This document shows, piece by piece, positions 21,491 through 59,182 of a stretch of DNA of 64,000 bases. A program made the translations under genes and the position numbers. The notes under the pieces are model-generated. The model was not told where the DNA came from. It made no database searches and saw only the letters and a list, made by a program, of their open reading frames with translations. This DNA comes from Williamsia sp. (GTDB lineage: Bacteria; Bacteroidota; Bacteroidia; Chitinophagales; Chitinophagaceae): the NCBI GenBank assembly GCA_015069695.1, contig JADCRZ010000010.1, positions 23,194-87,193 on the forward strand. Reading direction: 5' to 3'. The stretch's first letter is position 1. Every line of letters begins with the position of its first letter.

Positions 21491-21502
21491 ACCTCTTAAA
21501 AC

Positions 21503-22867
21503 ATGAAAATCGCTGTTGTAGGTACTGGGTATGTAGGATTGGTTACCGGTACCTGTTTCGCTGAGACCGGCAACCAGGTCATTTGCGTAGATATTGACAA
21601 GTCGAAGGTAGACAAGCTGACCAATGGTCAGATTACCATTTACGAACCAGGTCTGGAAAAGCTGTTCCTGCGCAACCTCAAGGAAGAGCGCCTTTCTTTT
21701 ACCACCGACCTGGCGAAAGGCATCAAAGAAGCAACCATTATATTCCTGGCCCTGCCTACTCCGCCCGGTGAAGACGGCTCTGCCGATCTGAAATACGTGC
21801 TGGGCAGCGCCAACGACATCGGCAAGCTGCTCACTGACTATAAGGTGATTGTAGACAAAAGCACCGTACCGGTAGGCACTGCAGAAAAAGTGCGCAATGC
21901 CATTGCACAAAACTACGATGGCGAATTTGACGTCGTATCAAACCCCGAGTTCCTGCGCGAAGGCGTGGCCGTGGATGATTTTATGAAACCCGACCGCGTA
22001 GTAATTGGAACCAGTTCAGAAAGGGCCAAAAAAATCATGGGTGATTTGTATGCTCCCTTTGTACGGCAGGGTAACCCCGTTGTATTTATGGACGAGCGCT
22101 CAGCTGAACTCACCAAGTATGCAGCCAATTCGTTCCTGGCCACCAAGATCTCTTTTATGAACGAGATCGCCCAGCTTTGCGAAAGACTGAACGCTGATGT
22201 AGACATGGTGCGATTGGGTATCGGCAGCGATGAACGCATCGGCAAACGCTTTTTGTTTCCCGGCATCGGTTATGGCGGAAGCTGTTTTCCGAAGGACGTA
22301 CAGGCGCTGGTAAAATCATCCAACGAAGTGCAGTATGATTTTAAAATTCTCAACGCCGTCATGGATGTGAACGAGAAACAAAAGCTCCACCTGCTGCCCA
22401 AAATAAAACGCTATTTCAAGAACAATCTGCAGGGTAAACACTTTGCTTTGTGGGGATTGGCCTTCAAACCCAATACAGACGATATCCGCGAAGCACCGGC
22501 CCTGTACATTATAAACGAGTTGCTGAATGAAGGCGCGACGGTAACAGCCTTCGACCCGGAAGCGATGAACAACGTAAAAGCTTTGCTGGGTGATAAAATA
22601 GAATTTGCCGAAAGCCAGTACCAAGCCCTGAAAGGCGCTGATGCGCTCATCATCGCCACTGAATGGAATGAGTTCCGCACACCCGACTTTTTAAAGATCG
22701 TGTCTGTGCTGAAGAGCAAGGTCATCTTTGATGGCAGAAACCTGTTTGATACAGATGCTATCCGCGAGCTGGGTTTTTATTACGAAAGCATTGGACGGCC
22801 TTCCACCCATGCTCACCCCGTAACCTATGTCAACCCGCCGCTGGCCCATTCCAACCAACTCGTATAA
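21503..22867 (+). CDS. ugd: UDP-glucose 6-dehydrogenase
   Basis: [16 protein letters not shown] and the catalytic GGSCFPKD. Confidence 0.9.
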
Positions 22868-22871
22868 ACCC

Positions 22872-23855
22872 ATGGAAAGAAAAAGAATACTGATCACCGG
22901 TGCGGCAGGCTTTCTCGGTTCTCATTTAAGCGATCGTTTTATAAAGGAAGGTTATCATGTTATTGGCATGGACAACCTGATCACCGGCGACCTGAGAAAT
23001 ATCGAACACCTGTTCAAGCTGGAACAATTTGAATTTTACAACCACGACGTTTCCAAATTTATTCACGTACCGGGCAAGCTGGAGTATATCCTGCATTTTG
23101 CTTCGCCCGCCAGTCCGATCGATTACCTGAAAATACCCATCCAAACCCTGAAGGTAGGCTCGCTGGGAACACACAACTGCCTTGGGCTTGCCAAATCCAA
23201 AGGCGCCCGGATGCTGATCGCTTCCACCTCCGAGATCTACGGCGACCCGCTGGTGCATCCGCAGAACGAGGAGTACTGGGGCAACGTAAACCCGGTAGGT
23301 CCGCGGGGTGTGTATGATGAGGCCAAGCGCTTCCAGGAAGCGATCACCATGGCTTACCACAATTTTCACGGCCTGGAAACCCGCATCGTGCGCATCTTTA
23401 ATACCTATGGTCCCAGGATGCGACTGAACGATGGCCGGGCACTGCCTGCATTTATCGGACAAGCCCTGCGGGGTGAAGACCTCACCGTTTTTGGTGACGG
23501 TAGCCAGACGCGGAGCTTTTGTTACGTGGATGACCTGGTAGAAGGCATTTACCGCCTGCTGCTGAGTGATTACCATGAACCGGTAAACATCGGCAACCCG
23601 GATGAAATTTCACTCAAAGACTTTGCGGAAGAGATCATCAAATTGACCGGTACTACCCAAAAGATCGTGTACCAGCCTCTTCCCAAAGACGATCCGAAAC
23701 AAAGAAAACCGGACATCACCCGGGCCAAGGAAATCCTTGGCTGGGAACCCAAAGTAAGCAGACAGGAAGGCCTGAAGGTCACCTACGAATATTTTAAATC
23801 ATTGCCCAAGGAAGAACTGGTGAAGCAGCCCAAAGAGTTCAAAAGCATGAAATAA
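22872..23855 (+). CDS. UDP-glucuronate decarboxylase (UDP-xylose synthase-type SDR)
   Basis: ATG at 22872. [29 protein letters not shown]. Confidence 0.85.
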
Positions 23856-25150
23856 TGTTGATATACGATGACCTGCTCCAAAAAAAGAAAAAGCTTGCTG
23901 TAATCGGTTTGGGATATGTGGGACTGCCGCTTGCTTTGGCGTTTGCGGAAAAACTTTCGGTGATCGGATATGATATAGATAGCAAAAAGGTCGGGCAGCT
24001 CAAAGAAGGCTCCGACCCATCGAGGGCTGTTGGGCAGGAAGCATTCAAGCACAAAGACATTGTATTCAGCTGTGATGCCGGGTCGTTGCAGGAAGCCCAT
24101 TTTTTTATTGTGGCCGTTCCAACCCCGGTTGATCACCACAAAGCGCCTGATTTGCAGCCCCTGCTCCTTGCTTCGGAAGCAATCGGGCGGGTACTGAAGA
24201 AAGGGGATTATGTGGTGTTTGAGTCAACAGTTTATCCGGGTTGTACGGAAGAAGAATGTTTGCCGGTATTGGAGCAGCACAGTGGTTTGCAGTGCCCCGG
24301 CGACTTTAAGCTGGGCTACTCTCCCGAGCGCATCAATCCCGGCGATAAAAACCATACGCTGGCAAACACGGTAAAAGTGGTAGCGGCCTGCGATCCCCTT
24401 TCCCTGGAAGAAACAGCCCGCCTGTATGAACTGGTGGTAACAGCCGGTGTACACAAGGCGCCTGGCATCAAAGTAGCGGAAACAGGCAAGATGCTGGAGA
24501 ATACGCAACGGTACGTCAACATCTCCCTGATGAACGAGATGGCCATGATCTGCGACCGGCTTGGCATCAACACGCTTGACGTGCTGGAAGCCGCCGGCAC
24601 CAAATGGAACTTCGCCAAGTTCAATCCCGGCCTGGTTGGCGGTCATTGCATTGGGGTAGACCCCTACTATCTCAAGCACAAGGCAAGGCAGCTGGGTTAT
24701 CACGCCCAGGTGCTGGCATCCGGCGAGCTGGTGAATGATGAGATGCCTTATTATGTTTCAAAAAAGGTGCTGCAGCACATTATAAAAGCAGGCACGCATC
24801 CCCAAGAAGCCCGGGTGCTGGTGCTGGGAATTACATTCAAGGAAAACGTCAGCGACATCCGCAATTCAAAAGTAATTCCGCTGGTGAAAGACCTGATGGA
24901 TTACGCTGTGCAGGTAGACGTGATGGATAACTATGCAGATGCCCACGAAGTGTGGGAGCAGCACGGGATCAGGCTCCTGGAAAAAGCAGGCAGCGGGTAT
25001 GATGCGGTCGTTCTGGCTGTTGCACACGATGCCTACCGGCATTTCTCTGAAGAAGGGCTGCTGCATTCCTGTAAACAGGGAGCGATGTTTGCTGATCTGA
25101 AAGGCCATTACCGGGGCAAATTTTCGACGCTTGTCTACTGGAATTTATAA
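23855..25150 (+). CDS. Nucleotide-sugar dehydrogenase, TviB/WbpO-like (UDP-HexNAc 6-dehydrogenase type)
   Basis: KKLAVIGLGYVGLPLALAFA and GGHCIGVDPYY. There is a TAATG stop/start overlap with the upstream gene. Confidence 0.82.
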   Translation: MLIYDDLLQKKKKLAVIGLGYVGLPLALAFAEKLSVIGYDIDSKKVGQLKEGSDPSRAVGQEAFKHKDIVFSCDAGSLQEAHFFIVAVPTPVDHHKAPDLQPLLLASEAIGRVLKKGDYVVFESTVYPGCTEEECLPVLEQHSGLQCPGDFKLGYSPERINPGDKNHTLANTVKVVAACDPLSLEETARLYELVVTAGVHKAPGIKVAETGKMLENTQRYVNISLMNEMAMICDRLGINTLDVLEAAGTKWNFAKFNPGLVGGHCIGVDPYYLKHKARQLGYHAQVLASGELVNDEMPYYVSKKVLQHIIKAGTHPQEARVLVLGITFKENVSDIRNSKVIPLVKDLMDYAVQVDVMDNYADAHEVWEQHGIRLLEKAGSGYDAVVLAVAHDAYRHFSEEGLLHSCKQGAMFADLKGHYRGKFSTLVYWNL

Positions 25151-25194
25151 AGCGATCAAAGACTCTTAACCACTAAAAAGAGCGAAATACCATT

Positions 25195-26250
25195 ATGAGC
25201 AAAACAATCCTGATTACCGGCGGCGCCGGTTTTATCGGTTCGCATGTAGTGCGCTTATTCGTCAACAAGTATCCGCAGTATACAATTGTAAACGGGGATG
25301 CGCTGACCTATGCAGGCAACCTGGAAAACCTGACTGATGTACAGCAGGCTCCCAACTATATTTTTGAAAAGATTGATATTACCAACGAGAAGGGCATGGA
25401 TGAGCTGGTAAGCAAATGGGCATTTGATGCCGTTATCCACCTGGCCGCGGAAAGCCATGTAGACCGCTCTATCGTAGATCCGCTCGCGTTCGTACGCACC
25501 AATGTACTGGGTACAGCCGTGCTGCTGAACACCTGCCGCAAACACTGGGGAGGCGATTACGCAGGTAAATTGTTTTACCATGTTTCAACAGATGAAGTAT
25601 ACGGATCATTGGGGGAAGAAGGTTTTTTTACAGAAACCACTCCCTACGACCCCCGCTCTCCCTACTCTGCTTCCAAAGCTTCCTCCGATCATTTTGTGAT
25701 GGCTTACTACCATACCTATCACATGCCGGTGGTGATGAGCAATTGTTCAAACAACTATGGCTCGCACCATTTTCCGGAAAAGCTGATCCCGCTCATGATC
25801 AACAACATCAAAAACAGCCGGCCGCTGCCTGTATACGGAAAGGGCGAAAACGTGCGTGACTGGTTGTGGGTAGAAGACCATGCCCGGGCCATCGACACCA
25901 TCTTTCACAAGGGTGTAGCAGGCGAGAAATACAATATAGGCGGGTTCAACGAATGGAAGAACATCGACCTGGTGCACCTGCTCTGCAATATCATGGACCG
26001 CAAGCTGGACCGGGAGCCCGGAACTTCAGCCCGCCTGATCGAGTATGTGAAAGACCGGGCAGGACACGATCTGCGCTATGCCATTGATGCCACCAAGATA
26101 AACCGGGAACTTGGATGGAATCCCTCGCTTCAGTTTGAAGAAGGATTGGAAAAAACCGTTGACTGGTACCTGAACAACGAAGGATGGGTAGAGGACGTCA
26201 CCAGTGGCAACTACCAGAAATATTACGAAGACCAGTATGTAAGAAGATAA
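25195..26250 (+). CDS. rfbB: dTDP-glucose 4,6-dehydratase
   Basis: ILITGGAGFIGSH, STDEVYG, YSASKA. Confidence 0.92.
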   Translation: MSKTILITGGAGFIGSHVVRLFVNKYPQYTIVNGDALTYAGNLENLTDVQQAPNYIFEKIDITNEKGMDELVSKWAFDAVIHLAAESHVDRSIVDPLAFVRTNVLGTAVLLNTCRKHWGGDYAGKLFYHVSTDEVYGSLGEEGFFTETTPYDPRSPYSASKASSDHFVMAYYHTYHMPVVMSNCSNNYGSHHFPEKLIPLMINNIKNSRPLPVYGKGENVRDWLWVEDHARAIDTIFHKGVAGEKYNIGGFNEWKNIDLVHLLCNIMDRKLDREPGTSARLIEYVKDRAGHDLRYAIDATKINRELGWNPSLQFEEGLEKTVDWYLNNEGWVEDVTSGNYQKYYEDQYVRR

Positions 26251-26267
26251 AGCCGAAACTACACACC

Positions 26268-26828
26268 ATGCCTTTTACAAAAACACCAATTCCCGATCTG
26301 ATGGTTTTTGAGCCATCAGTATATGGAGACGAACGGGGGTATTTCTTTGAATCGTACAACAAACAAAATTTTATCAGGGAAAACATTTCCCTTGATTTTG
26401 TACAGGATAACCAGGCCCGCTCTGTATACGGCGTCGTGCGGGGACTCCACTTTCAGCTGGCTCCCCATGCCCAGACAAAGCTGATCCGCGCACTGGAAGG
26501 AACCATCCTCGATGTGGCAGTTGACCTGCGGAAGAATTCTCCCACTTACGGAAAAGTATTTACCATCGAATTATCTGCACAGAACAAAAAACAGCTCCTG
26601 GTGCCCAAAGGCTTTGCCCATGGGTATTCCGTACTGACGGAAACAGCAGAAGTATTTTACAAGTGCGACGATTTTTATCACAAGGAACTGGAAGGCGGAC
26701 TGGCATTTAATGACCCGGCCCTGGAGATAGACTGGAAAATTCCGGCAGATAAAATGATCCTGTCGGCCAAAGACACACAGCACGCGGTGCTGAGCGAATG
26801 CAAACACAATTTTGTTTACAGGGGATAG
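26268..26828 (+). CDS. rfbC: dTDP-4-dehydrorhamnose 3,5-epimerase
   Basis: ATG at 26268. FEPSVYGDERGYFFESY..VQDNQARS..GVVRGLHFQ..KLIR...G.ILDVAVDLR. Confidence 0.9.
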   Translation: MPFTKTPIPDLMVFEPSVYGDERGYFFESYNKQNFIRENISLDFVQDNQARSVYGVVRGLHFQLAPHAQTKLIRALEGTILDVAVDLRKNSPTYGKVFTIELSAQNKKQLLVPKGFAHGYSVLTETAEVFYKCDDFYHKELEGGLAFNDPALEIDWKIPADKMILSAKDTQHAVLSECKHNFVYRG

Positions 26829-26849
26829 CCCTCATTATTTACATTATTC

Positions 26850-27713
26850 ATGCGTCCCACAATTCTGGTAACCGGTGCCAACGGGCAGGTAGGAAGGGAA
26901 CTGCGCGTATGTGCAGAAACCAATGCCCAATATGATTTTGTCTTTTTGTCAAAGGATGACCTATCTATTGACCGGCCTGAGCAGGTAGAAGAAGTTTTTC
27001 AGAAATGGGCCCCGAAGTACTGCATCAATTGTGCGGCCTATACGGCAGTCGACAAGGCTGAAACCGAGCAGGCGCTTGCCTTTCAGATCAACGGGGAGGC
27101 AACCGGTGTGCTGGCGGCTGCCAGCAGGCAGGCGGGTGCCCGTTTCATTCATATTTCAACAGACTATGTTTTCAACGGGAATGGTACGGCACCTTATCAG
27201 GAAGATCATGCAGTGGATCCGGTGAATATTTACGGCGCTTCCAAATTGCAGGGCGAGCAGTTGGCCAAGCAGCAAAATCCTGATTCGGTCATTATCCGCA
27301 CATCCTGGGTTTACTCCCGGTTTGGAAATAATTTTGTGAAAACAATGATGCGGCTGATGAAGGAACGGGAAAGCATAAACGTAGTTGATGATCAGAAGGG
27401 ATCACCTACGTATGCAGCTGACCTGGCTGCAGCGATGTTGAAGATCATTGCGTCGGAGAAATGGACACCCGGTATATACAATTACAGCAATGAAGGCGTA
27501 ATTACCTGGCACCAGTTTGCGCAGGCCATTGCGGAGCTTACGCGCAGCAGCTGCAAGGTGAATCCTATTCCTTCCGCGAACTTTCCTACCCCTGCCAAGC
27601 GGCCTGGTTACTCGGTTCTCAGCAAGGACAAGATCCGGGAGGTTTATCAGATTACCCCGCCTGCCTGGCGTACCAGCCTGGAGGCGTGCATCCGGCTCCT
27701 GCAACAATCATAG
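26850..27713 (+). CDS. rfbD: dTDP-4-dehydrorhamnose reductase
   Basis: ILVTGANGQVG, NCAAYTAVDKAE, HISTDYVFNG, YGASKL. Confidence 0.9.
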   Translation: MRPTILVTGANGQVGRELRVCAETNAQYDFVFLSKDDLSIDRPEQVEEVFQKWAPKYCINCAAYTAVDKAETEQALAFQINGEATGVLAAASRQAGARFIHISTDYVFNGNGTAPYQEDHAVDPVNIYGASKLQGEQLAKQQNPDSVIIRTSWVYSRFGNNFVKTMMRLMKERESINVVDDQKGSPTYAADLAAAMLKIIASEKWTPGIYNYSNEGVITWHQFAQAIAELTRSSCKVNPIPSANFPTPAKRPGYSVLSKDKIREVYQITPPAWRTSLEACIRLLQQS

Positions 27714-27737: not shown

Positions 27738-28163
27738 CTAAACCGATTGATCTACCGGTCCTGTGCTGACAGCTGCGATCTGCCGGGAAGGAGAAATCGT
27801 TCTGGACGATTTGTTCTGGTAAAAAAGAGGAAGATTCTTGTATGCAAGTCGTACCAGCGCTGCCTGAACTGCAGCACCCAGGGTTCTTCTGAAGATATTT
27901 CTTGATTTACCTACCACAATCTTCTGTGCAAGCCATCCGGCTGCCAGTCCGATAAAAGTGTTTATGATTGTGTAGCGGACATCCGGTGTGGTGATCACTT
28001 TCTGCAACCCCATTCTTACTAAGTTCATCGGTTTATAGTGCTCTTTGTACCCTCGGGCGGTTAATGTGCTGTTTCTTTTTAAAAGCTGTTCCTGCTGGTG
28101 CGTCTTCAGTTCCAGTTCTTTGATGGAGGCCTTGAGTTCGTCTAAGTTTGAAATCTTTTGCAT
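27738..28163 (-). CDS. Hypothetical protein (coiled-coil N-terminus, hydrophobic core); third gene of the YtxH operon
   Basis: LDELKASIKELELKTHQQEQLLK, then IINTFIGLAAGWLAQKIVV. It starts 3 nt after the upstream gene's stop. Confidence 0.55.
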   Translation of the reverse strand: MQKISNLDELKASIKELELKTHQQEQLLKRNSTLTARGYKEHYKPMNLVRMGLQKVITTPDVRYTIINTFIGLAAGWLAQKIVVGKSRNIFRRTLGAAVQAALVRLAYKNLPLFYQNKSSRTISPSRQIAAVSTGPVDQSV

Positions 28164-28166
28164 ATG

Positions 28167-28520
28167 CTAATTTAGAAATTTCTTGATGAGGGCACGCACG
28201 ACAGGTGCTTTGATTAATTTGTTGCGGGACACATGCAGGATCAGACCGATCAAGGCGTATAAACCTGCTATGATAAAAAATCCTCCCCAGTTGCTGCCTA
28301 TCAGGCTTCCCACCAGCAAAGCAAGTGCGATGCTGAACAGAATAATGAAGAATATACTGATAAAGAACAAGGCAACCCCCTCAATAACCGACGAAATAAC
28401 ATCGGAACTTTTATCAACCGCTTTCAGCTTCAGCAGGTCACGTTTGTTCTTCAGGTAATCCGTTCCCTCAGCAAACAGGGCTTTGATAGGATTTTGAGTC
28501 TCAGAAGGATTTTCTATCAT
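28167..28520 (-). CDS. Holin-X-like (phage holin 3_6 family) two-TM membrane protein
   Basis: Amphipathic N-terminus, then two TM segments, VIEGVALFFISIFFIILFSIALALLVG and GGFFIIAGLYALIGLILHV. Confidence 0.65.
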   Translation of the reverse strand: MIENPSETQNPIKALFAEGTDYLKNKRDLLKLKAVDKSSDVISSVIEGVALFFISIFFIILFSIALALLVGSLIGSNWGGFFIIAGLYALIGLILHVSRNKLIKAPVVRALIKKFLN

Positions 28521-28566
28521 AGTAGTTTATTATAATCGTCTTTACGTAAAGCAATAGAAGAAAAGA

Positions 28567-28887
28567 TTACTGGAAGTTGTTGGCTTCATTGTTAGCCTCG
28601 CCTTTGAACGTGTTGAATTTAGCTGCGCCTTTGTCAGCCAGATCCTGCGCACTGTCTTTTACGCCCTGATATGTGTCGGCAATATTGTCTTTTACACCCT
28701 GGTAAGTGTCTTTCACATTGTCAACAAAATCATTGAATTTGCTTTTGAGAGAATCTGCCAGATCGGTGCTGCTGTCAGTGATTTTTCTTCTTGTTTCTGT
28801 TCCCTTGTCTGGTGCATACAAGATTCCTAAAATTGATCCAACAGCTGCGCCTGCTAAAAATCCGAATACTACTTTTGAGGTACTCAT
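28567..28887 (-). CDS. YtxH domain protein
   Basis: FGFLAGAAVGSILGILYAPDKGTETRRKI, followed by helical repeats (DTYQGVKDN twice). Confidence 0.85.
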   Translation of the reverse strand: MSTSKVVFGFLAGAAVGSILGILYAPDKGTETRRKITDSSTDLADSLKSKFNDFVDNVKDTYQGVKDNIADTYQGVKDSAQDLADKGAAKFNTFKGEANNEANNFQ

Positions 28888-29168
28888 AGTTATACTTTTT
28901 TGGTTAATGATACAATTCGCTTATGTTGATATAAAATCCTTGCCAGAAATTGATTGATGATGTTTTAGATGAAAATTTTATCTATTCTCCGACCCGGCTT
29001 GTTTTTGCAATCCGTTGCTGAAAATAGATAAGTTAGCATTTATGCCTATGCGCATTTTTTTCCCCAGATTGTGAATGGAATTTTGATGGAAAACGCCTGA
29101 CCGCTACAAACTTGTCTGTAAATGTGGCCTGATTCTTCATATAGATATTTCAAATTAATCAACACAAT

Positions 29169-29357
29169 ATGAAACAAACAAACTCGCGAATGAGCATTCC
29201 GCTTTTGCTGGTAATGATGATTAGCTTATTTGTATTGAACAGCTGTTCAGCTATTGAAGGAATTTTCAAAGCAGGCGCCTGGACGGGAATTATACTGGTG
29301 GTGGTTGTAATTGCCATCGTGATCTGGATTATATCCAGACTGGGCGGCAGGTCATAA
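29169..29357 (+). CDS. Small membrane lipoprotein (62 aa)
   Basis: Lipobox LFVLNSC, then one TM segment, WTGIILVVVVIAIVIWIISRL. Confidence 0.5.
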   Translation: MKQTNSRMSIPLLLVMMISLFVLNSCSAIEGIFKAGAWTGIILVVVVIAIVIWIISRLGGRS

Positions 29358-29380
29358 AATGAGAGCTCGTAAAACAGCAG

Positions 29381-29422
29381 ATACAAAAACAGCCATTAAA
29401 AATTTAATGGCTGTTTTTGTAT
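29381..29422. terminator. Bidirectional hairpin terminator
   Basis: 16-bp perfect stem atacaaaaacagccat / atggctgtttttgtat, with A- and T-runs built into the arms. Confidence 0.6.
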
Positions 29423-29537
29423 CTTTTATATTTCCCATGTTTCTGCTGGCTGTAAACTTTATGTTGAAGACCAACTACGTCTTTACACCAGTATAAAAAT
29501 GCGGTTTCATATGATTAGGATTTATGCTTCTTCGGCA

Positions 29538-29690
29538 CTATACACTACCACCCCGGATCACGCGAAGAAGAACTGCAATAATGGCTATTACCAACAGGAT
29601 ATGGATAAGACCGCCTGCGTGGTACCCCAAAAAGCCAATGGCCCAGATAATTACGAGTACTACGGCAATGATGTACAATAGATTTCCCAT
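29538..29690 (-). CDS. lmo0937-like small membrane protein (50 aa; absent from the ORF track because it is under 60 aa)
   Basis: Hand translation gives MGNLLYIIAVVLVIIWAIGFLGYHAGGLIHILLVIAIIAVLLRVIRGGSV, a pattern typical of the lmo0937 family. Confidence 0.7.
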   Translation of the reverse strand: MGNLLYIIAVVLVIIWAIGFLGYHAGGLIHILLVIAIIAVLLRVIRGGSV

Positions 29691-29854
29691 GTAAGAAAGT
29701 TTTTAAAGGTGATAGATTGGTTTATGATGATTAATAAAAAACTTTGCCAAATTTTAATTTCTCACCGGCATAATATGGTATACCGAGAATTCCCGTTTTC
29801 TTTTTGTGTGCAATAAATTCTACATACGTTCAACGTTCTGTTAAACAAAACAGC

Positions 29855-30289
29855 TCAGGCAAGCTGGTCGATCGTAGAATAAATAATATCGCGGTTGAAA
29901 GGTTTGCTGATAAAAAAGTCGACTCCCTCTGCATACGCCTTGTTGCGTTCTGCAGCGCTGTCATGGGCAGTAATCATAATTATTTTTGTGGTAGGGGCAT
30001 TCACTTTTACATACCGGATAAAATCAAGTCCGAACCCGTCCGGCAGGTGATTGTCAAGAAAAAGGATCTCTGGAGGATCATTTTTGATCGCAAGTTCTGC
30101 ATCTGATAGCGTGTTTACATAGGCAGTCTTTAATTTTTTCTGCTTTAAAATGCCTCCCAACAAATAACAAATATCGAGCTCGTCATCGACTATTAAAACT
30201 TTCAATGCATTAGTTTTATCATATTTGTAGGTCTCCAATATAACTGTATCTGACATTCTCATACATTCCAATATGTTTTCTATCTTCAA
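29855..30289 (-). CDS. Stand-alone response regulator receiver
   Basis: KVLIVDDELDICYLL..ILFLDNHLPDGFG..KIIMITAH..FISKP. The start is uncertain: TTG at 30289 or the ATGs at 30262 and 30256. Confidence 0.8.
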   Translation of the reverse strand: MKIENILECMRMSDTVILETYKYDKTNALKVLIVDDELDICYLLGGILKQKKLKTAYVNTLSDAELAIKNDPPEILFLDNHLPDGFGLDFIRYVKVNAPTTKIIMITAHDSAAERNKAYAEGVDFFISKPFNRDIIYSTIDQLA

Positions 30290-30646
30290 ATAACTTGCCA
30301 GCCGGTAAGAGAACCTTTACCCCGGGAAACGAGCCCCTGCTTTTAAGCATTTACCTGTATGGGCCGCAGCGGGAGCAGGAAAGGTTCTCCTCAATCTGTG
30401 GTCATTTCGAAAGGGACAGCAGTCCGAAATAGCGTTGAAAGAAAAACCGTTAGCTCTTTTTTGGCAGGATTTTTAGATTTTATATGCAGTCAGCAGAAGA
30501 TCTTTGCACGCAGATTTAGTAAAGGCCCCACCCAACCAAGTGCTTCTACAGCGGGTCAGTGGGAAAGGATTTCCCGGTTTACTCCCATTATGGGCGTATC
30601 CAGACAGTGACAATAAAATTTATTACTATCATATAAACAATTTCGA

Positions 30647-31600
30647 ATGGCTGAACCTCAAATCAAAAAAAACAACCTTAAATCTGTATTTGGTTTCTTA
30701 AAGGAAGTATTCAGTGGTTTTAGTGACGACAAGGCAATGAAATACAGTGCTTCGCTTTCTTATTACACGGTTTTTTCCATTGCACCCATGATCATCGTCA
30801 TTATATCGGCAGCAGGAATCGTGTTTGGCCGGGAGGCGGTACAGGGACGGATATTCGACCAAATAAATGGGTTGGTAGGCGCAGAGGCTGCAAAACAAAT
30901 CCAATCAATTATCAGCAATACCCATAGTTCCGGCAACACGATCGTTGCCAGCATTGTGAGTGCAGTGGTTGTTATTATGGGAGCCACCGGCGTTTTCGGA
31001 GAGATCCAGGATTCCATCAACAGCATCTGGGGCCTGAAAAGCAAACCCAAAAGAGGCATTATCAAAATTGTATTGAACCGGGTTATCTCGTTTTCCCTGA
31101 TTATAAGCCTGGGTTTTGTTTTGATGGTTTCCCTGGCTGTCAATGCTTTTGTGTCTGTGATTACTTCCCAGCTGGCCAGCATTATCCCCGGTGTGGGTAC
31201 TTATTTTTTAATGATCGTGAACCAAGCGCTTATTTTTCTCATTATGTCTTTTATGTTCTCCGTAATCTTTAAAGTACTGCCAGACGCCAAAATCAAATGG
31301 CGGGATGTAAGCAAGGGCGCCATGCTGACTGCCATCCTGTTTATGGTGGGCAAGTACCTGATAGGCTTATACGTAGAAAAAAGCAATCTTACGTCTGTAT
31401 ATGGCGCGGCGGGATCTATTGTAATTATTATGGTGTGGGTGTATTATACCGCCGTAATTTTGTACTTTGGAGCTGAATTTACCAAAGTTTACTCTGTAAA
31501 ATACGGCAGCAAGATAGAACCAAACGATTATGCAGTGTGGGTAAAAGTAAACGAAGAAGAGCAGCCGCACCAAACCCTTGAAGAAGTAAAAACATCATAG
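30647..31600 (+). CDS. YihY/BrkB (virulence factor BrkB / RNase BN-like) family membrane protein
   Basis: MKYSASLSYYTVFSIAPMIIVIISAAG and six TM segments. Confidence 0.85.
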   Translation: MAEPQIKKNNLKSVFGFLKEVFSGFSDDKAMKYSASLSYYTVFSIAPMIIVIISAAGIVFGREAVQGRIFDQINGLVGAEAAKQIQSIISNTHSSGNTIVASIVSAVVVIMGATGVFGEIQDSINSIWGLKSKPKRGIIKIVLNRVISFSLIISLGFVLMVSLAVNAFVSVITSQLASIIPGVGTYFLMIVNQALIFLIMSFMFSVIFKVLPDAKIKWRDVSKGAMLTAILFMVGKYLIGLYVEKSNLTSVYGAAGSIVIIMVWVYYTAVILYFGAEFTKVYSVKYGSKIEPNDYAVWVKVNEEEQPHQTLEEVKTS

Positions 31601-31673
31601 CCTTCACCAGCGAAGGCAGAATCCAGTTCTTTTACGCTAAATTGCAAGAAAAATTACTCAAAATTACCCATAA

Positions 31674-33083
31674 ATGAAGAGGATACTCATCATCGATGAT
31701 GATATGGATATGTGCGCGCTGCTAAGCCGTTTTCTGCAGCGAAACGGATATGAGACGGAAACGGCTCACACCGGTCATAAAGGAATCAGCAAATTCAACG
31801 AAAGCAAGTTTGATATCGTTTTGTGTGATTTCCGCCTGGGCGACAAAGACGGGCGGGATGTGTTGCAGGAAATGAAGGCAATCAATCCACAGGTAGTTTT
31901 TATCATTATCACCGGCTACTCCGACATCAAAACAGCGGTAGACGTGATCAAGTTAGGCGCCTACGATTATATTACCAAACCGCTGATCCCCGATGAAGTG
32001 TTGAACGTGATCAGCAAGTCAGCCCAATCCACCCCTGCCAAAGGGGGCGAGTCAAAAGCTGATTCGCCTTCATCTGCTTCCATTAAGAAGAAAGCAAACG
32101 TTACACATGATGGCGAATTCCTGGTAGGGCAGGCCCCCGCCACCAAGGAATTGTACCGGCAGATAGAGCTGGTTGCACCAACCAGCTACAGCATTATATT
32201 ATATGGCGAAAGCGGAACCGGTAAAGAAGTGGTGGCAAAAACAATCCATCAATCCAGTGACCGGAAAAACAAGCCTTTTATTGCGATGGACTGCGGCACC
32301 CTGTCAAAAGAACTGGCGGGAAGTGAGCTGTTCGGGCATGTAAAGGGCGCATTTACCGGCGCCTTGAACGACAAGGAAGGGCATTTTGAAATGGCCAATG
32401 GAGGCACCCTCTTTCTGGATGAGGTCACCAACCTGTCTTACGAGATCCAGGCAGCCCTGCTCAGGGTTATACAGGAACGCAAGTTCAGACGGGTAGGCGG
32501 CAGCAAGGAAATGAGCCTCGACATCCGCGTAATTGTTGCCTCCAACGAAAACCTGCAGGATGCTTACCGCAAAGGCAAGTTCCGCGAAGACCTTTACCAC
32601 CGTTTCAACGAATTCTCCATTACCATCCCTCCCCTCCGGGGCCGCAAGGAAGATATTCCCCTGTTTGCTGATTTTTTCCTCAACAAGGCACTGGGAGAAC
32701 TGAACAAAGACATAGAAGGGTACGAACCGGAAGTCATCAAATTGTTCATGGAATACTCCTGGCCCGGTAACCTGCGCGAGTTTAAAAACGTGATCCGCAG
32801 GGCCGCGCTGCTGAGTACTTCTAAACTGATTTCTGCTAAAACGCTTCCCTGGGAGATCACCAACGCGCCTGTACAGGCACCCGCTCCCGCAGAAGCTGCT
32901 TCAACCGTGATCCCTGTTTCACTGAATAAGGAGTCTGACCTTCGCAATGCTGCTTCCATGGCAGAGTACGAAACCATCATGAACGTCCTCAAACAGGTCA
33001 ATTTCAACAAAACCAAAGCTGCTGAAATCTTAAAGATCGACCGCAAAACACTGTATAACAAATTAAAAGGTCACGAACTTTAA
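31674..33083 (+). CDS. Sigma-54-dependent response regulator (NtrC/Fis family enhancer-binding protein)
   Basis: Receiver (ILIIDDD..CDFRLGDKDG), AAA+ domain (GESGTGKEV, GAFTGA, LFLDEV) and a C-terminal Fis-type HTH (KTKAAEILKIDRKTLYNKL). Confidence 0.92.
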   Translation: MKRILIIDDDMDMCALLSRFLQRNGYETETAHTGHKGISKFNESKFDIVLCDFRLGDKDGRDVLQEMKAINPQVVFIIITGYSDIKTAVDVIKLGAYDYITKPLIPDEVLNVISKSAQSTPAKGGESKADSPSSASIKKKANVTHDGEFLVGQAPATKELYRQIELVAPTSYSIILYGESGTGKEVVAKTIHQSSDRKNKPFIAMDCGTLSKELAGSELFGHVKGAFTGALNDKEGHFEMANGGTLFLDEVTNLSYEIQAALLRVIQERKFRRVGGSKEMSLDIRVIVASNENLQDAYRKGKFREDLYHRFNEFSITIPPLRGRKEDIPLFADFFLNKALGELNKDIEGYEPEVIKLFMEYSWPGNLREFKNVIRRAALLSTSKLISAKTLPWEITNAPVQAPAPAEAASTVIPVSLNKESDLRNAASMAEYETIMNVLKQVNFNKTKAAEILKIDRKTLYNKLKGHEL

Positions 33084-54816: not shown

Positions 54817-54867
54817 CATTTATACTAAATATATTAACGAACGCCTCACTAAAACCCTTCTTTGCAT

Positions 54868-55473
54868 ATGAGTACAGATTTCACAAACGGACCCGGGTAC
54901 CGCTACTTCGAGTACTTGTTGGTGTTACAGCCGCATGAAGACCTCCGTGCTAAAATCGTGGGTATCAAAAAAGATTTTCAGGCAGTCTACAATACACCTA
55001 CTCTGGGCGGAAAGCCGCATATTGTATTAGCGAAGTTTGTAGTTTGGGGAATGATGGAAGAAAGAATTGTTAACCGGCTTCGTGTGGCGGCCATGGGCAC
55101 ACCGCCTTTTAAAGTAGCTTTTAAAAACTTTGGCAGCTTTCCTTCTCACACAATCTATCTCAATACAACCACCAGCATTCCCATTCAATACCTGATGCGG
55201 GAGCTGCGTACGGCCAGGCACCTGCTGAAATCGGGGGATGCAGATCCTTACTTTATCACTGAGCCTTTCCTGACCATTGCAAGAAACTTAACACCGCTCC
55301 AATTCCAGAAAGCCTGGCATGAATATGCTCACCGCAGCTTTACGGGCAGTTTTGTAGCAGACAGCATGCTGCTTATCCGGCGGCAGGAGGGAGAAAAATT
55401 TTATCAGATCGTGCAACGCTTGGAGTTCAGCAATCTTCCTGTGAATTCACAACAGGGTTCCCTGTTTTTGTAA
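54868..55473 (+). CDS. 2H phosphoesterase / 2'-5' RNA ligase (LigT-like) family protein
   Basis: PHIVLAKF and SHTIYLN are H-x-[TS/V]-x-like motifs about 80 aa apart. Length is around 200 aa. Confidence 0.65.
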   Translation: MSTDFTNGPGYRYFEYLLVLQPHEDLRAKIVGIKKDFQAVYNTPTLGGKPHIVLAKFVVWGMMEERIVNRLRVAAMGTPPFKVAFKNFGSFPSHTIYLNTTTSIPIQYLMRELRTARHLLKSGDADPYFITEPFLTIARNLTPLQFQKAWHEYAHRSFTGSFVADSMLLIRRQEGEKFYQIVQRLEFSNLPVNSQQGSLFL

Positions 55474-55599: not shown

Positions 55600-56694
55600 A
55601 TGTCTGCTGACCAGCTAACCCCCGATGGGCAGCAACCGCCTGGCGACAACTACATCAAAGGCCGGGGCGCCCAGTTCAATACCAAAAACAAATTCCTGCA
55701 ACAAGAAGTTGTAAAGGAACATATCGAAGGAATAGACGATTGGATCGAACCCAACCGGCAAACGCAATACCTCGAAGGCAACGCAAAAAGTATCGTGAAC
55801 AAGGTAGACAGTCCGGACGTGGGCATGTGGTACAGCATGAATCCTTACCAGGGCTGTGAGCACGGATGCATCTACTGCTATGCCCGCAATTCATTTGAAT
55901 ACTGGGGTTACAGCGCCGGCATCGACTTTGAACAAAAGATCATTGTAAAGAAAAATGCTCCGCAGCTGCTCCGGAAATTTCTGCGGCATCCAACCTGGGA
56001 ATGTACCCCCATCAGCATGAGCGGCAATACAGATTGCTACCAGCCGGCTGAAAAAAAATTCAAGCTTACCCGGCAGTTGCTTGAGGTTTGTCTTGAGTTT
56101 AATCAGCCCGTCGGTATCATCACCAAAAATGCCGGCATCCTGCGCGACAAAGACCTGCTGGTAAAAATGGCTGAAAAGCGGCTGGTGTCAGCCCTGGTAT
56201 CGATTACTTCTTTTCAGGAAGACCTGCGCCGTGTGATGGAACCCCGCACCACGACGGCTGCCCAGCGGCTGCGGGTGATCAGCGAGCTCAGCCAGGCAGG
56301 TGTAAAAATAGGCGTTATGCTGGGCCCGATGATTCCCGGGCTCAATGAGCATGAAATGCCTGGCATCATCAAGGCAGCCAGCGAAGCCGGCGCAAGCTTT
56401 TCTGCCTATACATTTGTCCGGCTTAACGGCGCCATCAAACTTTTGTTTCACGACTGGCTGTACAAAAACTTTCCCGGCCGGGCCGACAAAGTATGGCACC
56501 TGATTGAACAGGCGCACGGCGGCAAAGTCAACGATAGCCAGTGGGGCCGCAGAATGCGCGGAGAAGGCCCGATTGCGTCCCTTGTTTCTCAGCAATATAA
56601 AAAATTCACCCAACGCTACGGCCTCAACCAGGAAAAATGGGAACTGGACTGCACCCATTTCACCCGCCCCGGCAAGCAGTTGGGACTATTCTAA
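55600..56694 (+). CDS. PA0069-family radical SAM protein (SplB-like, often labelled DNA repair photolyase)
   Basis: CEHGCIYCY (CxxxCxxC). N-terminal YIKGRGAQFN. Confidence 0.82.
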   Translation: MSADQLTPDGQQPPGDNYIKGRGAQFNTKNKFLQQEVVKEHIEGIDDWIEPNRQTQYLEGNAKSIVNKVDSPDVGMWYSMNPYQGCEHGCIYCYARNSFEYWGYSAGIDFEQKIIVKKNAPQLLRKFLRHPTWECTPISMSGNTDCYQPAEKKFKLTRQLLEVCLEFNQPVGIITKNAGILRDKDLLVKMAEKRLVSALVSITSFQEDLRRVMEPRTTTAAQRLRVISELSQAGVKIGVMLGPMIPGLNEHEMPGIIKAASEAGASFSAYTFVRLNGAIKLLFHDWLYKNFPGRADKVWHLIEQAHGGKVNDSQWGRRMRGEGPIASLVSQQYKKFTQRYGLNQEKWELDCTHFTRPGKQLGLF

Positions 56695-56833: not shown

Positions 56834-56852
56834 ACAACCCTACTTTTGAAGG

Positions 56853-58307
56853 ATGCAAGCCGTGATCCAGGGAATAAAAGACCTTTTTTTTCTCTATAGC
56901 CAGGAGCCCATCAGTTCGGTAGAGAAGTTGCCTCAATCAGGTAGCGACCGGACGTATTTCAGGATTTTTACCCCCTCTGCTTCGTACATCGCTACGCACA
57001 ATTTGAACCGGCGTGAGACAAACACCTTTGTTGAATTCAGCCGGCATTTTAAACAATATGGGGTGCCGGTACCGGCCATCCTTGCGGTGAACGCAGATGA
57101 TACGCTTTATATCCAGGAAGACTTCGGCGATATTTCCCTGCTCAACAAGCTGGAGGAAGGTGGATATACACAGCCGGTTTTTGACCTGTTTAAACAGACG
57201 CTCAAAGAACTGGCTTATATGCAGATTACAGGTGGCAAAACCCTGAACTATGATCTTTGTCTGACAGCAAAAGAATTCGGAAAACAGGCGATCCTGAGCG
57301 ACCTGCTTTATTTCAAGTATTATTTTCTGGATACATTGAAAATGCCTTACGACAAACAGGCCCTGCTGGATGATTTTGAAAACCTGAGCACCTATCTTAC
57401 CCAAACCGGTCTGACCCATTTTATGTTCCGCGATTTTCAAAGCCGGAACGTAATGATCAAGGAAGAATGCGTTCATTTCATCGATTACCAGGGAGGTATG
57501 AGGGGTGCGTTGCAATATGATGTCGCTTCGCTGCTCTGGCAGGCCAAGGCCGATCTGCCGGATCAATGGAAAGACGATTTGCTTTATTACTATATCGATT
57601 GTGCAGATGAGTTGCTGGAAACGCCTGTTGACAGAACCCCGTTTGTGAGCCAGTATTATGGCTATGTACTGATCCGTTTGCTGCAGGTACTGGGCGCTTA
57701 CGGGTTCCGGGGACTTTTTGAGCGCAAGGCTCATTTCCTGATTAGCATTCCACTGGCGCTCCGGAATTTGCGGTGGTTTCTCGCCCACAAACAAATAGGG
57801 CTCAGCCTGCCTGAATTTGACCGGCTGCTGCAGCTGATTGTAGAGGATAACATTGTTGCCCGTTTTGAACCTGTACAAGCTACGCCGGATTCACCCCTCA
57901 CGGTGAGCATTCACAGCTTTTCATTCAAACAAAAACACCCGGTTGATGAAAGTGAAAACGGGGGCGGCTTTGTATTTGATTGCCGGGGTATTTACAACCC
58001 GGGCCGGCTGGAAGAATTTAAAAGATTGACGGGCAGGGACAAACCGGTCAAGGATTTTCTGGAACAACAAACCCGGATGCCTGATTTTTTGAACAGTGTA
58101 TACAACCTGGTTGACATCTCCGTAGAAGATTACCTGAAACGGGGTTTTGACCGGCTGATGGTCAGCTTTGGCTGTACGGGCGGGCAACACCGCAGTGTGT
58201 ATGCAGCCGATGAACTGGCCCGCCATCTGCGCAACAAATTCAAAGTAAAAACCGAAGTAAAGCACCTGGTTCAGGATGCAAAGAAATGGATCAACGACCT
58301 GCGCTGA
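56853..58307 (+). CDS. Fusion protein: AmgK-like anomeric amino-sugar kinase (APH/ChoK fold) plus RapZ C-terminal domain
   Basis: N-terminus: FMFRDFQSRNVMI (catalytic loop) and FIDYQGG. C-terminus: FVFDCRGIYNPGR..LTGRDKPVKDFL..VSFGCTGGQHRSVYAADELARHL, which parallels the RapZ CTD. Confidence 0.8.
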   Translation: MQAVIQGIKDLFFLYSQEPISSVEKLPQSGSDRTYFRIFTPSASYIATHNLNRRETNTFVEFSRHFKQYGVPVPAILAVNADDTLYIQEDFGDISLLNKLEEGGYTQPVFDLFKQTLKELAYMQITGGKTLNYDLCLTAKEFGKQAILSDLLYFKYYFLDTLKMPYDKQALLDDFENLSTYLTQTGLTHFMFRDFQSRNVMIKEECVHFIDYQGGMRGALQYDVASLLWQAKADLPDQWKDDLLYYYIDCADELLETPVDRTPFVSQYYGYVLIRLLQVLGAYGFRGLFERKAHFLISIPLALRNLRWFLAHKQIGLSLPEFDRLLQLIVEDNIVARFEPVQATPDSPLTVSIHSFSFKQKHPVDESENGGGFVFDCRGIYNPGRLEEFKRLTGRDKPVKDFLEQQTRMPDFLNSVYNLVDISVEDYLKRGFDRLMVSFGCTGGQHRSVYAADELARHLRNKFKVKTEVKHLVQDAKKWINDLR

Positions 58308-58322
58308 TCCTGGTCACCCACC

Positions 58323-59057
58323 ATGCAATCATCAGAAAACAAACCCATACAGGCCATGATCCTGGCTGCCGGATTGGGCACCCGGCTGAAACCCTGGACC
58401 CTTCATCATCCCAAGGCACTGGCACCCGTGAACGGCAAACCGCTGCTGCAGCACAATATAATCTACCTGCAGCAACATGGGATTTATGATGTGGTGGTAA
58501 ACGTACACCATTTCGCAGATCAGATCAGGGAAGCGATTAGGTCCAATGGGGGATGGGGCAGCCGCATCACCATCTCAGACGAAAGCCATGAAGTGCTGGA
58601 AACCGGTGGCGGCCTGAAAAAAGCCCAGGGCTTTTTTAGCCCGGGTGATTTTGTGCTGATGAATGTAGATGTGCTCACCGACCTGAACCTGCAGGAAATG
58701 ATGCGCTTTCACCAGGAGCATCGCCCGCTTGCGACCCTGGCAGCCAGGAACCGGGAAACTTCCCGCTATTTCCTTTTCGATGAAGAAGACATTCTTTGCG
58801 GCTGGAGAAATGTAAAAACAGGAGAACAGATCCTGGTGAAAGAAGAGGGGTCTCCCGTTCAAAAAGCGTTCAGCGGCATACATATTATCAATACAGCTAT
58901 TTTCCCTCTTATTGCGCTGGAGGGTAAATTCAGCATGGTAGCGCTTTATCTGCAACTGGCTCAAAGTCATTCCATAAAAGCATTTGATCACTCATCCAGC
59001 AAATTTATAGATGTGGGTACCCTGGCTTCAATTGAGCAGGCACAGCACCTTTTTTAA
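58323..59057 (+). CDS. Sugar-1-phosphate nucleotidyltransferase, MurU-like
   Basis: MILAAGLGTRLKPWTLHHPKALAPVNGKPLL. It starts 16 nt after the kinase fusion gene. Confidence 0.82.
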   Translation: MQSSENKPIQAMILAAGLGTRLKPWTLHHPKALAPVNGKPLLQHNIIYLQQHGIYDVVVNVHHFADQIREAIRSNGGWGSRITISDESHEVLETGGGLKKAQGFFSPGDFVLMNVDVLTDLNLQEMMRFHQEHRPLATLAARNRETSRYFLFDEEDILCGWRNVKTGEQILVKEEGSPVQKAFSGIHIINTAIFPLIALEGKFSMVALYLQLAQSHSIKAFDHSSSKFIDVGTLASIEQAQHLF

Positions 59058-59182
59058 CTCCCGGTGTACAGAATGCACCGGTTGTTACATACAATGAAGA
59101 CTATTTTCTACAGGTTTCCCTGTATTTGACTTATCATTGCGGGGTACTTTATTTGTAAGATAGTATTGAAAATTTTCTGCAT

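Follow-up and report, generated by a model that had tools for sequence, protein, structure and literature searches.

Two groups of described proteins are relevant to the locus reported here. In the AmgK/MurU bypass of Pseudomonas putida, also found in C. crescentus, L. pneumophila and T. forsythia, the gene of an APH-fold kinase is followed by that of a small NTP_transferase. In E. coli, the T. forsythia orthologues convert MurNAc into UDP-MurNAc, and Bacteroides is also reported to have the pathway. It is also known to influence fosfomycin susceptibility in other bacteria. The other group is the RapZ family. RapZ (YhbJ) of Enterobacteriaceae consists of an adenylate-kinase-like N-domain with Walker A/B motifs and a C-terminal domain (CTD), and its RNA-binding domain was stated to be confined to Enterobacteriaceae, along with GlmY/GlmZ. 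The CTD dimerises by itself, and D182 is required for this self-interaction. Its sulphate/malonate pocket is formed by H190, C247, T248, G249, H252 and R253, and H190 is essential. The isolated CTD binds GlcN6P, and density for a chemically transformed GlcN6P was reported in a crystal of the E. coli CTD. The C247S variant of E. coli RapZ is inactive, and the authors suggested a catalytic thiol; it has been speculated in the RapZ literature that metabolite binding is primordial and that Cys247 is perhaps catalytic. YvcJ of Bacillus subtilis, which is considered together with GlmR, belongs to the same family, has no RNA-binding tail and is linked to the control of UDP-GlcNAc and cell-wall precursors. 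RapZ and YvcJ are conserved across bacteria, and a biochemical role has been settled only for the GlmY/GlmZ circuit of enterobacteria.

The locus lies in a stretch of 64,000 nucleotides from a soil member of Chitinophagaceae, hereafter the window, and encodes an APH-fold kinase fused to a RapZ-type CTD (Table 1). No description of such a fusion was found in the searchable literature. All strings that the initial annotation had quoted from this protein are present in the 484-aa ORF, including FVFDCRGIYNPGR (aa 373-385), LTGRDKPVKDFL (aa 392-403) and SFGCTGGQHRSVYAADELARHLRNKF (aa 438-463). The ORF of a nucleotidyltransferase begins after a spacer of 15 nt and is probably co-transcribed with the fusion. 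As a promoter, the -7 box-like sequence upstream of the start codon is a weak lead only, since TAnnTTTG is not enriched in the window (37 found vs. 47 expected); a sigma-70 promoter scan of the window was also made, the consensus of which is uninformative for Bacteroidota. No second copy of the RapZ-type domain, the kinase or the transferase occurs within the window.

Table 1. Features of the fusion gene and its surroundings (positions in the window).
Feature	Position	Strand	Remarks
TACTTTTG, match to Bacteroidetes -7 promoter box TAnnTTTG	56841..56848	+	read directly; 4 nt 5' of start codon
ORF of APH-fold kinase with RapZ-type C-terminal domain	56853..58307	+	single ORF, 484 aa
Kinase domain, APH / protein-kinase-like fold	56853..57812	+	aa 1-320; nearest named family AmgK
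Catalytic loop R-D-F-Q-S-R-N	57429..57449	+	aa 193-199; D194, N199
Metal-binding segment I-D-Y-Q-G-G	57480..57497	+	aa 210-215
Helical linker between kinase and RapZ-type domain	57813..57896	+	aa 321-348; model helices 320-329, 332-338
RapZ-type C-terminal domain	57897..58268	+	aa 349-472; PF22740
Family-specific glycine-rich insertion S-E-N-G-G-G	57951..57968	+	aa 367-372
N-P-G-R	57996..58007	+	aa 382-385; Gly at RapZ H190, Arg at W191
Anion-pocket loop G-C-T-G-G-Q-H-R-S	58170..58196	+	aa 440-448; equivalent to RapZ G246-S254
MurU-like sugar-1-phosphate nucleotidyltransferase ORF	58323..59057	+	244 aa
Candidate end of transcription unit	59061..59124	+	inverted repeat and terminator-like hairpin; consensus matches only
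Inverted repeat CCGGTG-9 nt-CACCGG	59061-59081	+	read directly
Terminator-like hairpin	59109-59124	+	pattern scan; consensus match

The kinase domain has an APH / protein-kinase-like fold with the catalytic Asp/Asn loop and the metal-binding Asp, and it is matched by the Pfam profile APH (PF01636) at aa 25-248 (E=8e-13). Both motifs are strictly kept: among 38 homologues, the RDFQSRN loop is invariant, and so are I210, D211, Q213, G214 and G215. The best match in both structure and sequence is 3csv, an 'aminoglycoside phosphotransferase' of Silicibacter sp. TM1040 from structural genomics. It was found in the sequence search of the PDB (E=1e-8) and came first in Foldseek (E=1e-13, TM 0.73), followed by other APH-fold small-molecule kinases. 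The two motifs are aligned to HRDFHAQN and IDFQDA of 3csv, and both proteins have RDF..N, IDFQ and an Arg where the ATP-binding Lys is usual. However, 3csv, a functionally uncharacterised protein, has only one domain in its 333 aa and no RapZ-type domain. The initial annotation described the kinase as AmgK-like. This is correct as far as the nearest named relative is concerned, AmgK being the only named kinase family in NCBIfam with E<0.01 for this domain, but it cannot serve as a family assignment: the two AmgK models gave 49 and 44 bits against cutoffs of 550 and 500, which is below equivalog level, and none of six further family members (41-64 bits) reached a cutoff.

The remaining part of the protein is a genuine RapZ CTD, as had been proposed. 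In Pfam, PapZ_C (the RapZ C-terminal domain, PF22740) matched aa 350-471 over profile positions 2-117 of 121 (E=1.5e-32). The NCBIfam RapZ model was matched at positions 153-276 only (102 bits vs. an equivalog cutoff of 244), so that the P-loop half is absent. Indeed, the Walker A/B adenylate-kinase-like N-domain of RapZ / UPF0042 is replaced by the APH fold at residues 1-320, which agrees with the first reading of this gene. The sequence search of the PDB found the E. coli RapZ CTD, 5o5s (E=9e-16). An AlphaFold model of the full-length protein was obtained with pLDDT 83.3 and pTM 0.72; whole-protein Foldseek was swamped by kinase matches, and hence the domain was modelled separately (pLDDT 91.5). 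With this domain-only model, RapZ entries alone were significant, and 5o5s is superposed at TM 0.91 and rmsd 1.8 A, with 32% sequence identity between the fusion domain and RapZ. The RapZ-type domain is the best-conserved part of the module, with 55% identity vs. 37-38% for the kinase and the transferase, and the helical linker is the least conserved segment (0.68).

The kinase-RapZ_C design is widespread across Bacteroidota. Each of the best 120 database homologues has both domains in ~481-484 aa, and the same single ORF is present at 340 genome loci, including closed chromosomes, isolates and the cultured Pinibacter and Flavihumibacter. An artefact of frameshift or assembly joining two separate genes, a concern of the initial annotation, is ruled out by this distribution. 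All named members belong to Bacteroidota; most representatives are nameless, so spread beyond the phylum is possible. In public databases, the fusion proteins are annotated as 'RNase adapter RapZ', a label that is misleading. Further partner domains of PapZ_C (FGGY_N, GH92, GT1, HSP70 and ART-PolyVal) were discounted, since they occur only as partial fragments, probably in chimeric metagenome assemblies. No conserved neighbourhood was found beyond the transferase: the radical SAM and LigT pair upstream of the fusion is shared by only 11-13 of 80 loci, and the gene contexts in Bacteroidales are unrelated. Other peptidoglycan-recycling genes were not seen near the fusion in any locus examined.

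The downstream protein is a minimal NTP_transferase fold (PF00483, E=2e-16) in the ~225-245 aa size range of MurU, and its best match in the PDB is P. putida MurU, 4y7t, aligned end to end (E=1.4e-25). As with the kinase, the name given to it earlier, MurU-like, is apt for the nearest named relative (130 bits vs. 73 for the next-best NCBIfam family) and too strong for a family assignment, the two MurU models giving 130 and 107 bits against cutoffs of 250 and 370. The NCBIfam cutoffs for AmgK and MurU were reached by no member of the fusion family tested. The linkage of the two genes varies among lineages. Of 72 Chitinophagaceae-type loci, 47-53 have the transferase as the gene directly after the kinase and ~21 do not have it nearby, and in Puia-type genomes a gene for a lipid A acyltransferase follows the kinase gene instead. 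In Bacteroidales, the two-gene forms overlap by 4 nt, and more than 100 proteins are triple fusions in the order kinase, RapZ_C and nucleotidyltransferase; these make up 109 of the 120 best matches to a Muribaculaceae protein, and one 90% cluster holds both fused and split versions. Because triple fusions are common in Bacteroidales, the coupling is stronger than the earlier reading could know, although about a third of Chitinophagaceae-type loci do not have the genes side by side. The locus shares with the AmgK/MurU bypass the gene order and the linkage of the kinase to a MurU-type gene, and this pathway provides the best named matches of both proteins. The locus differs from it in the extra domain of ~125 aa, unmentioned in accessible descriptions of AmgK, and in the triple fusions, and neither MupP nor AnmK genes were seen near the fusion.

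To describe the pocket, 263 fusion domains were aligned with E. coli RapZ. C441, T442, G443, G444, H446, R447 and S448 of the anion-pocket loop are conserved in 100% of them. In terms of RapZ numbering, the fusion domain shares C247, T248, G249, H252, R253, D182, R184 and the TGxDxPV motif, so that five of the six pocket residues are invariant in the family. The sixth, H190, is replaced by Gly (G384) in 99% of members, and therefore the ligand specificity of RapZ is not transferable to the fusion family. The neighbouring W191 position is Arg (R385) in 92%. The glycine-rich insertion, with the family consensus S-G-N-G-G-G (83-99% per position), is absent from E. coli RapZ. These family-specific residues, the S-G-N-G-G-G loop, G384/R385, R430 and F432, match RapZ I175, H190, N236 and R238, which lie in or beside the pocket according to the RapZ papers. 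D376, equivalent to D182, is conserved in 99%.

From these features we infer a substrate, a ligand and a regulatory logic for the module. The kinase domain would add a phosphate to the anomeric carbon of a free amino sugar; MurNAc is the most likely one, and GlcNAc may be accepted too. The MurU-like enzyme would then turn the sugar-1-phosphate into a UDP-sugar, to be used in cell-wall synthesis. For the RapZ-type domain, we propose binding of a small molecule rather than of RNA. The conserved C-T-G-G-x-H-R-S pocket of this domain, enlarged by the glycine-rich loop and two extra arginines, may accept an amino-sugar metabolite with negative charge, for example GlcN6P, MurNAc-P or a UDP-sugar. 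Binding would tune or couple the steps of the kinase and the transferase, probably in a dimer or tetramer. We give even chances to this picture of a salvage module from sugar-1-phosphate to UDP-sugar that is tuned by the RapZ-type domain. A sugar-phosphate sensing or allosteric role, one of the two functions initially suggested for the domain, is compatible with an anion pocket that is conserved and yet remodelled, as judged from the alignment.

The other suggested function was RNA binding, by which amino-sugar salvage would be coupled with post-transcriptional control. Some residues are in its favour: K359, which corresponds to K170 essential for GlmZ binding in RapZ, is a lysine or arginine in 88% of members, R378 (RapZ R184) is conserved in 99%, and the window protein has lysines K470, K477 and K478 in its tail, RNKFKVKTEVKHLVQDAKKWINDLR. 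However, the enterobacterial tail consensus RxRxKNxQxRHRTxxKRK is absent from the family, and all named Bacteroidota members lack the RNA-binding tail. Behind the invariant His, members of the family have the non-basic consensus R-E-Q; the tail differs between Chitinophagaceae and Bacteroidales; and in triple fusions a linker of ~14 aa leads into the transferase instead. RapZ K194, R211, R238 and K251 are changed to P/E, D/E/Q, F and Q, the first three across the 263 members, and the GlmY/GlmZ context of RapZ is absent for the fusion. RNA binding is thus disfavoured, and we regard it as very unlikely. The domain could also be an oligomerisation scaffold without a ligand of its own, which keeps the kinase, or in the fused form the transferase as well, dimeric or tetrameric. 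The near-fixed D376 would fit such a role, given the requirement for D182 in the self-dimerisation of the RapZ CTD. But a pure scaffold could do without the invariant pocket loop, the fixed insertion rich in glycine and the fixed arginines beside the pocket, and it is also not expected to be the best-conserved segment, so that we hold this explanation to be improbable. Another alternative is an enzymatic role. The high conservation of the domain and its invariant Cys suit catalysis at least as well as regulation. The Cys-x5-Arg-Ser loop would then act on a phosphorylated sugar or pyrophosphate, for example as a MurNAc-6-P phosphatase replacing MupP, as a phosphomutase from 6-P to 1-P between the kinase and the transferase, or by handling pyrophosphate and thereby drawing the transferase reaction forward. 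C441 and R447 are conserved without exception, the domain is better conserved than either flanking enzyme, and the order of the triple fusion would suit a three-step reaction. The inactivity of RapZ C247S and the transformed GlcN6P in the E. coli CTD point in the same direction, and phosphatase activity has been reported for YvcJ, though in the part of that work accessible to us it is not tied to one domain. On the other side, the likeness of C-x5-R to phosphatase loops is a pattern observation only. A phosphatase fold for this loop is unsupported, as the domain model matches no known phosphatase or mutase fold (PFK appears at E ~1), and a mutase would be superfluous because the characterised kinases nearest to the present one are anomeric. 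An enzymatic role of the domain is therefore, in our estimation, unlikely, though less so than a scaffold.

A different doubt concerns the substrate. It may not be MurNAc but, for example, GlcNAc or GalNAc, in a NahK-like route to UDP-HexNAc, or a sugar of a surface polysaccharide or LPS, and then the locus would not be a bypass for peptidoglycan salvage. The scores of both enzymes fall well short of the curated cutoffs for AmgK and MurU, recycling genes were not found nearby in the loci examined, the lipid A acyltransferase gene of Puia-type genomes would suit such a role, and chitin-degrading lineages are among the hosts. Against this stand MurU as the clearly best match of the transferase, AmgK as the sole named match of the kinase, and the AmgK/MurU route reported in Bacteroidota (T. 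forsythia and Bacteroides). We consider another substrate a minority possibility, and MurNAc is kept as the probable substrate in the proposed salvage module.

The fusion also bears on the family of its C-terminal domain. Compared with RapZ, it has an unrelated kinase fold in place of the Walker A/B domain, it lacks H190, the basic tail and several RNA contacts, and it has gained the glycine-rich insertion and arginines. Compared with YvcJ, it misses the Walker A domain through which UDP-GlcNAc is bound (K22A abolishes binding), and neither glmR nor whiA was seen in the neighbourhood of the fusion. What the three have in common is the RapZ-type domain, and the fusion design suggests that sugar phosphates, not RNA, were the original business of this domain. 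The argument is one of guilt by association: the best-conserved part of the proposed module from sugar to UDP-sugar is the RapZ-type domain, often placed between both enzymes. As a speculation that we hold only tentatively, the domain might be an obligate, possibly catalytic amino-sugar-phosphate module; the ancestral job of RapZ/YvcJ would be chemistry or sensing of cell-wall sugar phosphates, and the enterobacterial role as RNase adaptor a late exaptation. With the same reserve, two unrelated kinase folds would have been joined to the domain independently, the P-loop in RapZ/YvcJ and APH in Bacteroidota. AmgK/MurU-type enzymes of Bacteroidota are in use for labelling peptidoglycan metabolically, and the fusion system offers a simple in vitro route to the ligand or reaction of the domain, for which one or two proteins and a set of defined substrates are enough. 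If the speculation is true, the Bacteroidota fusions would give the simplest access to the true ligand or reaction of the RapZ/YvcJ family.

The initial annotation described an AmgK-like kinase fused to a RapZ C-terminal domain (CTD). This two-domain architecture was borne out by Pfam, by matches to solved structures and by a model of the CTD alone, and the sequence strings quoted there were all found in place. PapZ_C (PF22740), the Pfam family of the RapZ CTD, covers residues 350-471 of the kinase-RapZ_C protein (E=1.5e-32, profile covered nearly in full), and APH (PF01636) covers residues 25-248 (E=8e-13). Only positions 153-276 of the NCBIfam RapZ model align, which means that the protein lacks RapZ's Walker A/B half. 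A comparison with solved structures pairs the C-terminal part with E. coli RapZ (5o5s, E=9e-16) and the N-terminal part with the APH-fold protein 3csv (E=1e-8). The latter, with other APH-fold small-molecule kinases, also tops the fold matches of the confident full-length AlphaFold model (pLDDT 83.3). The CTD-only model (pLDDT 91.5) has 16 significant PDB matches, RapZ entries only, and fits 5o5s with TM 0.91, rmsd 1.8 Å and 32% identity; its phosphofructokinase matches were not significant and no phosphatase fold was among the matches. Both kinase motifs are intact, R-D194-F-Q-S-R-N199 in the catalytic loop and I-D211-Y-Q at the metal site, and AmgK is the sole named family matched by this domain. 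The next ORF encodes an NTP_transferase, as the initial annotation had noticed; MurU is its top named family (130 bits, next family 73) and P. putida MurU its closest solved relative (4y7t, E=1.4e-25). The labels AmgK-like and MurU-like thus hold as nearest named families, but both enzymes score far under the curated NCBI equivalog cutoffs. The transferase may instead start at a second ATG (Met12, 58356, within 58323-58358), which would widen the intergenic spacer to 48 nt; the alignment to P. putida MurU begins at residue 10 (KAMILAAG vs QAMILAAG).

Features of the kinase-RapZ_C locus and of related Puia-type loci
Feature	Position	Strand	Remark
LigT-like 2'-5' RNA ligase superfamily gene	54862-55473		upstream of kinase gene
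PA0069-family radical SAM gene	55600-56694		upstream of kinase gene; 478 bits, above cutoff
TACTTTTG, matching the Bacteroidetes -7 promoter box	56841-56848		ends 4 nt before ATG
Kinase-RapZ_C ORF	56853-58307	+	484 aa
Nucleotidyltransferase ORF	58323-59057	+	244 aa; 15 nt after kinase-RapZ_C ORF
S-G-N-G-G-G segment of RapZ-type domain	aa 367-372		family-specific; last five residues are an insertion absent from E. coli RapZ
LpxL-like acyltransferase gene, locus L009	7656-8570		Puia-type
LpxL-like acyltransferase gene, locus L012	7547-8482		Puia-type
LpxL-like acyltransferase gene, locus L023	7449-8348		Puia-type
LpxL-like acyltransferase gene, locus L036	7529-8437		Puia-type

A frameshift or assembly artefact, which the initial annotation had named as a possible undoing of the fusion, is ruled out. 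All 120 best database homologues carry both domains in about 481-484 aa. A scan of species-representative genomes gave 340 loci, and each of the best 80 has an uninterrupted ORF of the same kind, including closed chromosomes (OZ241749.1, OY970066.1) and the cultured Pinibacter aurantiacus, P. soli and Flavihumibacter solisilvae. When the CTD alone was searched for exhaustively, 3414 representative clusters came up at E<=1e-3 (202 at E<=1e-30); 90 of the best 150 show the kinase-RapZ_C fusion, being 440-560 aa long and carrying the domain from about residue 340 to 480. Judged from the named sequences, a minority of members, the fusion occurs in Muribaculaceae, Bacteroidaceae, Bacteroides, Paraprevotella, Porphyromonadaceae, Bacteroidales, Chitinophagaceae and Puia, all Bacteroidota. 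Metagenome proteins joining PapZ_C to partial FGGY_N, HSP70, GT1, GH92 or ART-PolyVal (P0181, P0184, P0140, P0156, P0260) are probably chimeric assemblies. Two other combinations, HEAT-repeat with PapZ_C (P0254, 570 aa) and 3'-5' exonuclease with APH and PapZ_C (P0193), could be genuine or could be gene-calling fusions.

Of the 72 related loci whose downstream sequence is long enough, 47 have the transferase as the next same-strand gene (about 53 under a looser filter), with an extrapolated spacer of -37 to +457 nt (median 18); none lies within 6 kb in about 21. In Puia-type genomes its place after the kinase-RapZ_C gene is taken by an LpxL-like lipid A acyltransferase gene (PF03279), in two tandem copies in L009, a link to the outer-membrane pathway. 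The strongest evidence for coupling of kinase and transferase comes from Bacteroidales, where 6 of 10 long representatives are one polypeptide in the order APH, PapZ_C, NTP_transferase, with a linker of about 14 aa before the transferase. The same make-up is found in 109 of the 120 best matches to one Muribaculaceae triple fusion. Bacteroidales also have two-gene versions, with a 4-nt overlap. Within one Bacteroidales 90%-identity cluster (P0317; P0633-P0646), fused proteins (703-717 aa) occur beside split forms (455-460 plus 255-258 aa), reflecting either an easily flipping fusion boundary or inconsistent gene calls. The flanking genes of different lineages are unrelated and no further peptidoglycan-recycling genes lie near the unit in the loci examined, so that it is self-contained.

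No part of the system is more conserved than the RapZ-type domain. In comparisons with 108 triple fusions, median identity to the window protein is 55% in this domain, as against 37% in the kinase and 38% in the transferase, and within Chitinophagaceae its column conservation averages 0.83, compared with 0.76. Residues defined in the RapZ structural papers were mapped onto an alignment that combines residues 158-271 of E. coli RapZ with 263 fusion-type domains. Kept at 95-100% are C441, T442, G443, G444, H446, R447 and S448 (RapZ C247-S254 apart from K251), R378 (R184), N382-P383, the TGxDxPV motif (T393-G394-x-D396..V399) and D376, the equivalent of D182, which RapZ requires for CTD self-interaction. 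Other positions are family-specific: C377 replaces V183 and is fixed, H190 becomes G384 (99%), W191 R385 (92%), N236 R430 (100%) and R238 F432 (98%), and H471 is fixed (99%). As RapZ I175, H190, N236 and R238 are reported in or beside the sulphate/malonate pocket, homology suggests that these changes cluster there.

The intact kinase motifs, AmgK as sole family match and the MurU-like transferase make two-step salvage the simplest reading. The kinase would convert a free amino sugar, by analogy most likely MurNAc, into a sugar-1-phosphate, and the transferase would convert this into a UDP-sugar. Such a route would parallel the AmgK/MurU bypass that has been reported in Pseudomonas, Caulobacter, Legionella and T. 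forsythia (Bacteroidota). The RapZ-type domain appears to retain a phosphate/carboxylate-binding pocket, enlarged by the glycine-rich loop and two arginines. Since the RapZ CTD alone binds GlcN6P, the domain is proposed to bind an anionic amino-sugar metabolite and thereby tune or couple the two steps, probably in an oligomer. We hold this reading of a metabolite-tuned salvage unit with moderate confidence. Whichever role the domain has, there is some chance that the enzymes act on a sugar other than MurNAc, since both miss the AmgK/MurU cutoffs and the kinase gene is linked to the lipid A acyltransferase in Puia genomes.

It is less likely that the domain itself is catalytic. Such a role would fit the Cys-x5-Arg-Ser loop, which is invariant, the extremely high conservation of the domain and its place in an assembly-line-like domain order. 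It would also fit the inactive RapZ C247S and 'chemically transformed' GlcN6P density of the RapZ paper and a report that YvcJ has phosphatase activity; however, the domain model has no enzyme fold match, and an anomeric kinase requires no extra step. A pure oligomerisation scaffold is consistent with D376 but leaves the fixed pocket unexplained, and seems improbable. RNA binding, an option in the initial annotation, is very improbable, because the RNA-related features are largely lost from the aligned domains: K194 is replaced by P/E, R211 by D/E/Q, R238 by F and K251 by Q, and no tail with the basic consensus RxRxKNxQxRHRTxxKRK is present, a linker standing there in triple fusions.

The window comes from a Chitinophagaceae-type Bacteroidota genome: it carries type IX secretion (T9SS) genes and its close relatives are all Chitinophagaceae. 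A database protein 100% identical to the kinase-RapZ_C ORF is labelled as a MAG of 'Williamsia sp.', an actinobacterial genus (Actinomycetota), and the contig has probably been mis-binned or mislabelled; a 'Streptomyces griseus' MAG (L055) looks like an error of the same sort. The upstream LigT-like and radical SAM pair recurs in 11-13 of 80 related loci. If functional, the -7 box would give a nearly leaderless transcript; this motif is not enriched across the window overall. The TACTTTTG octamer also lies 19 nt before the ORF starting at 20363. A nucleotide-sugar biosynthesis cluster (20363-27713; sugar aminotransferase, TuaD-like and TviB-like NDP-sugar dehydrogenases, epimerase/dehydratase, RmlB, RmlD) is probably a surface polysaccharide locus. 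The region 28001-32000 (GC 0.40-0.43, about 0.48-0.50 in the rest) could be an acquired segment.

Full-text literature searches found no paper describing an AmgK-type kinase/RapZ fusion; public domain annotations do show the architecture, which is thus undescribed rather than hidden. The kinase-transferase unit is proposed to work like AmgK/MurU but is not a member under NCBI equivalog criteria. The window protein shares a domain with RapZ, yet it lacks the P-loop domain and RNA tail, scores under the cutoff and is not a RapZ; the name 'RNase adapter RapZ', given to fusion proteins in some database entries, is not justified. We class the unit as a probable salvage module of the AmgK/MurU type into which a RapZ-type domain is built. 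This domain follows two unrelated kinase folds, which suggests that it has a small-molecule role common to both.
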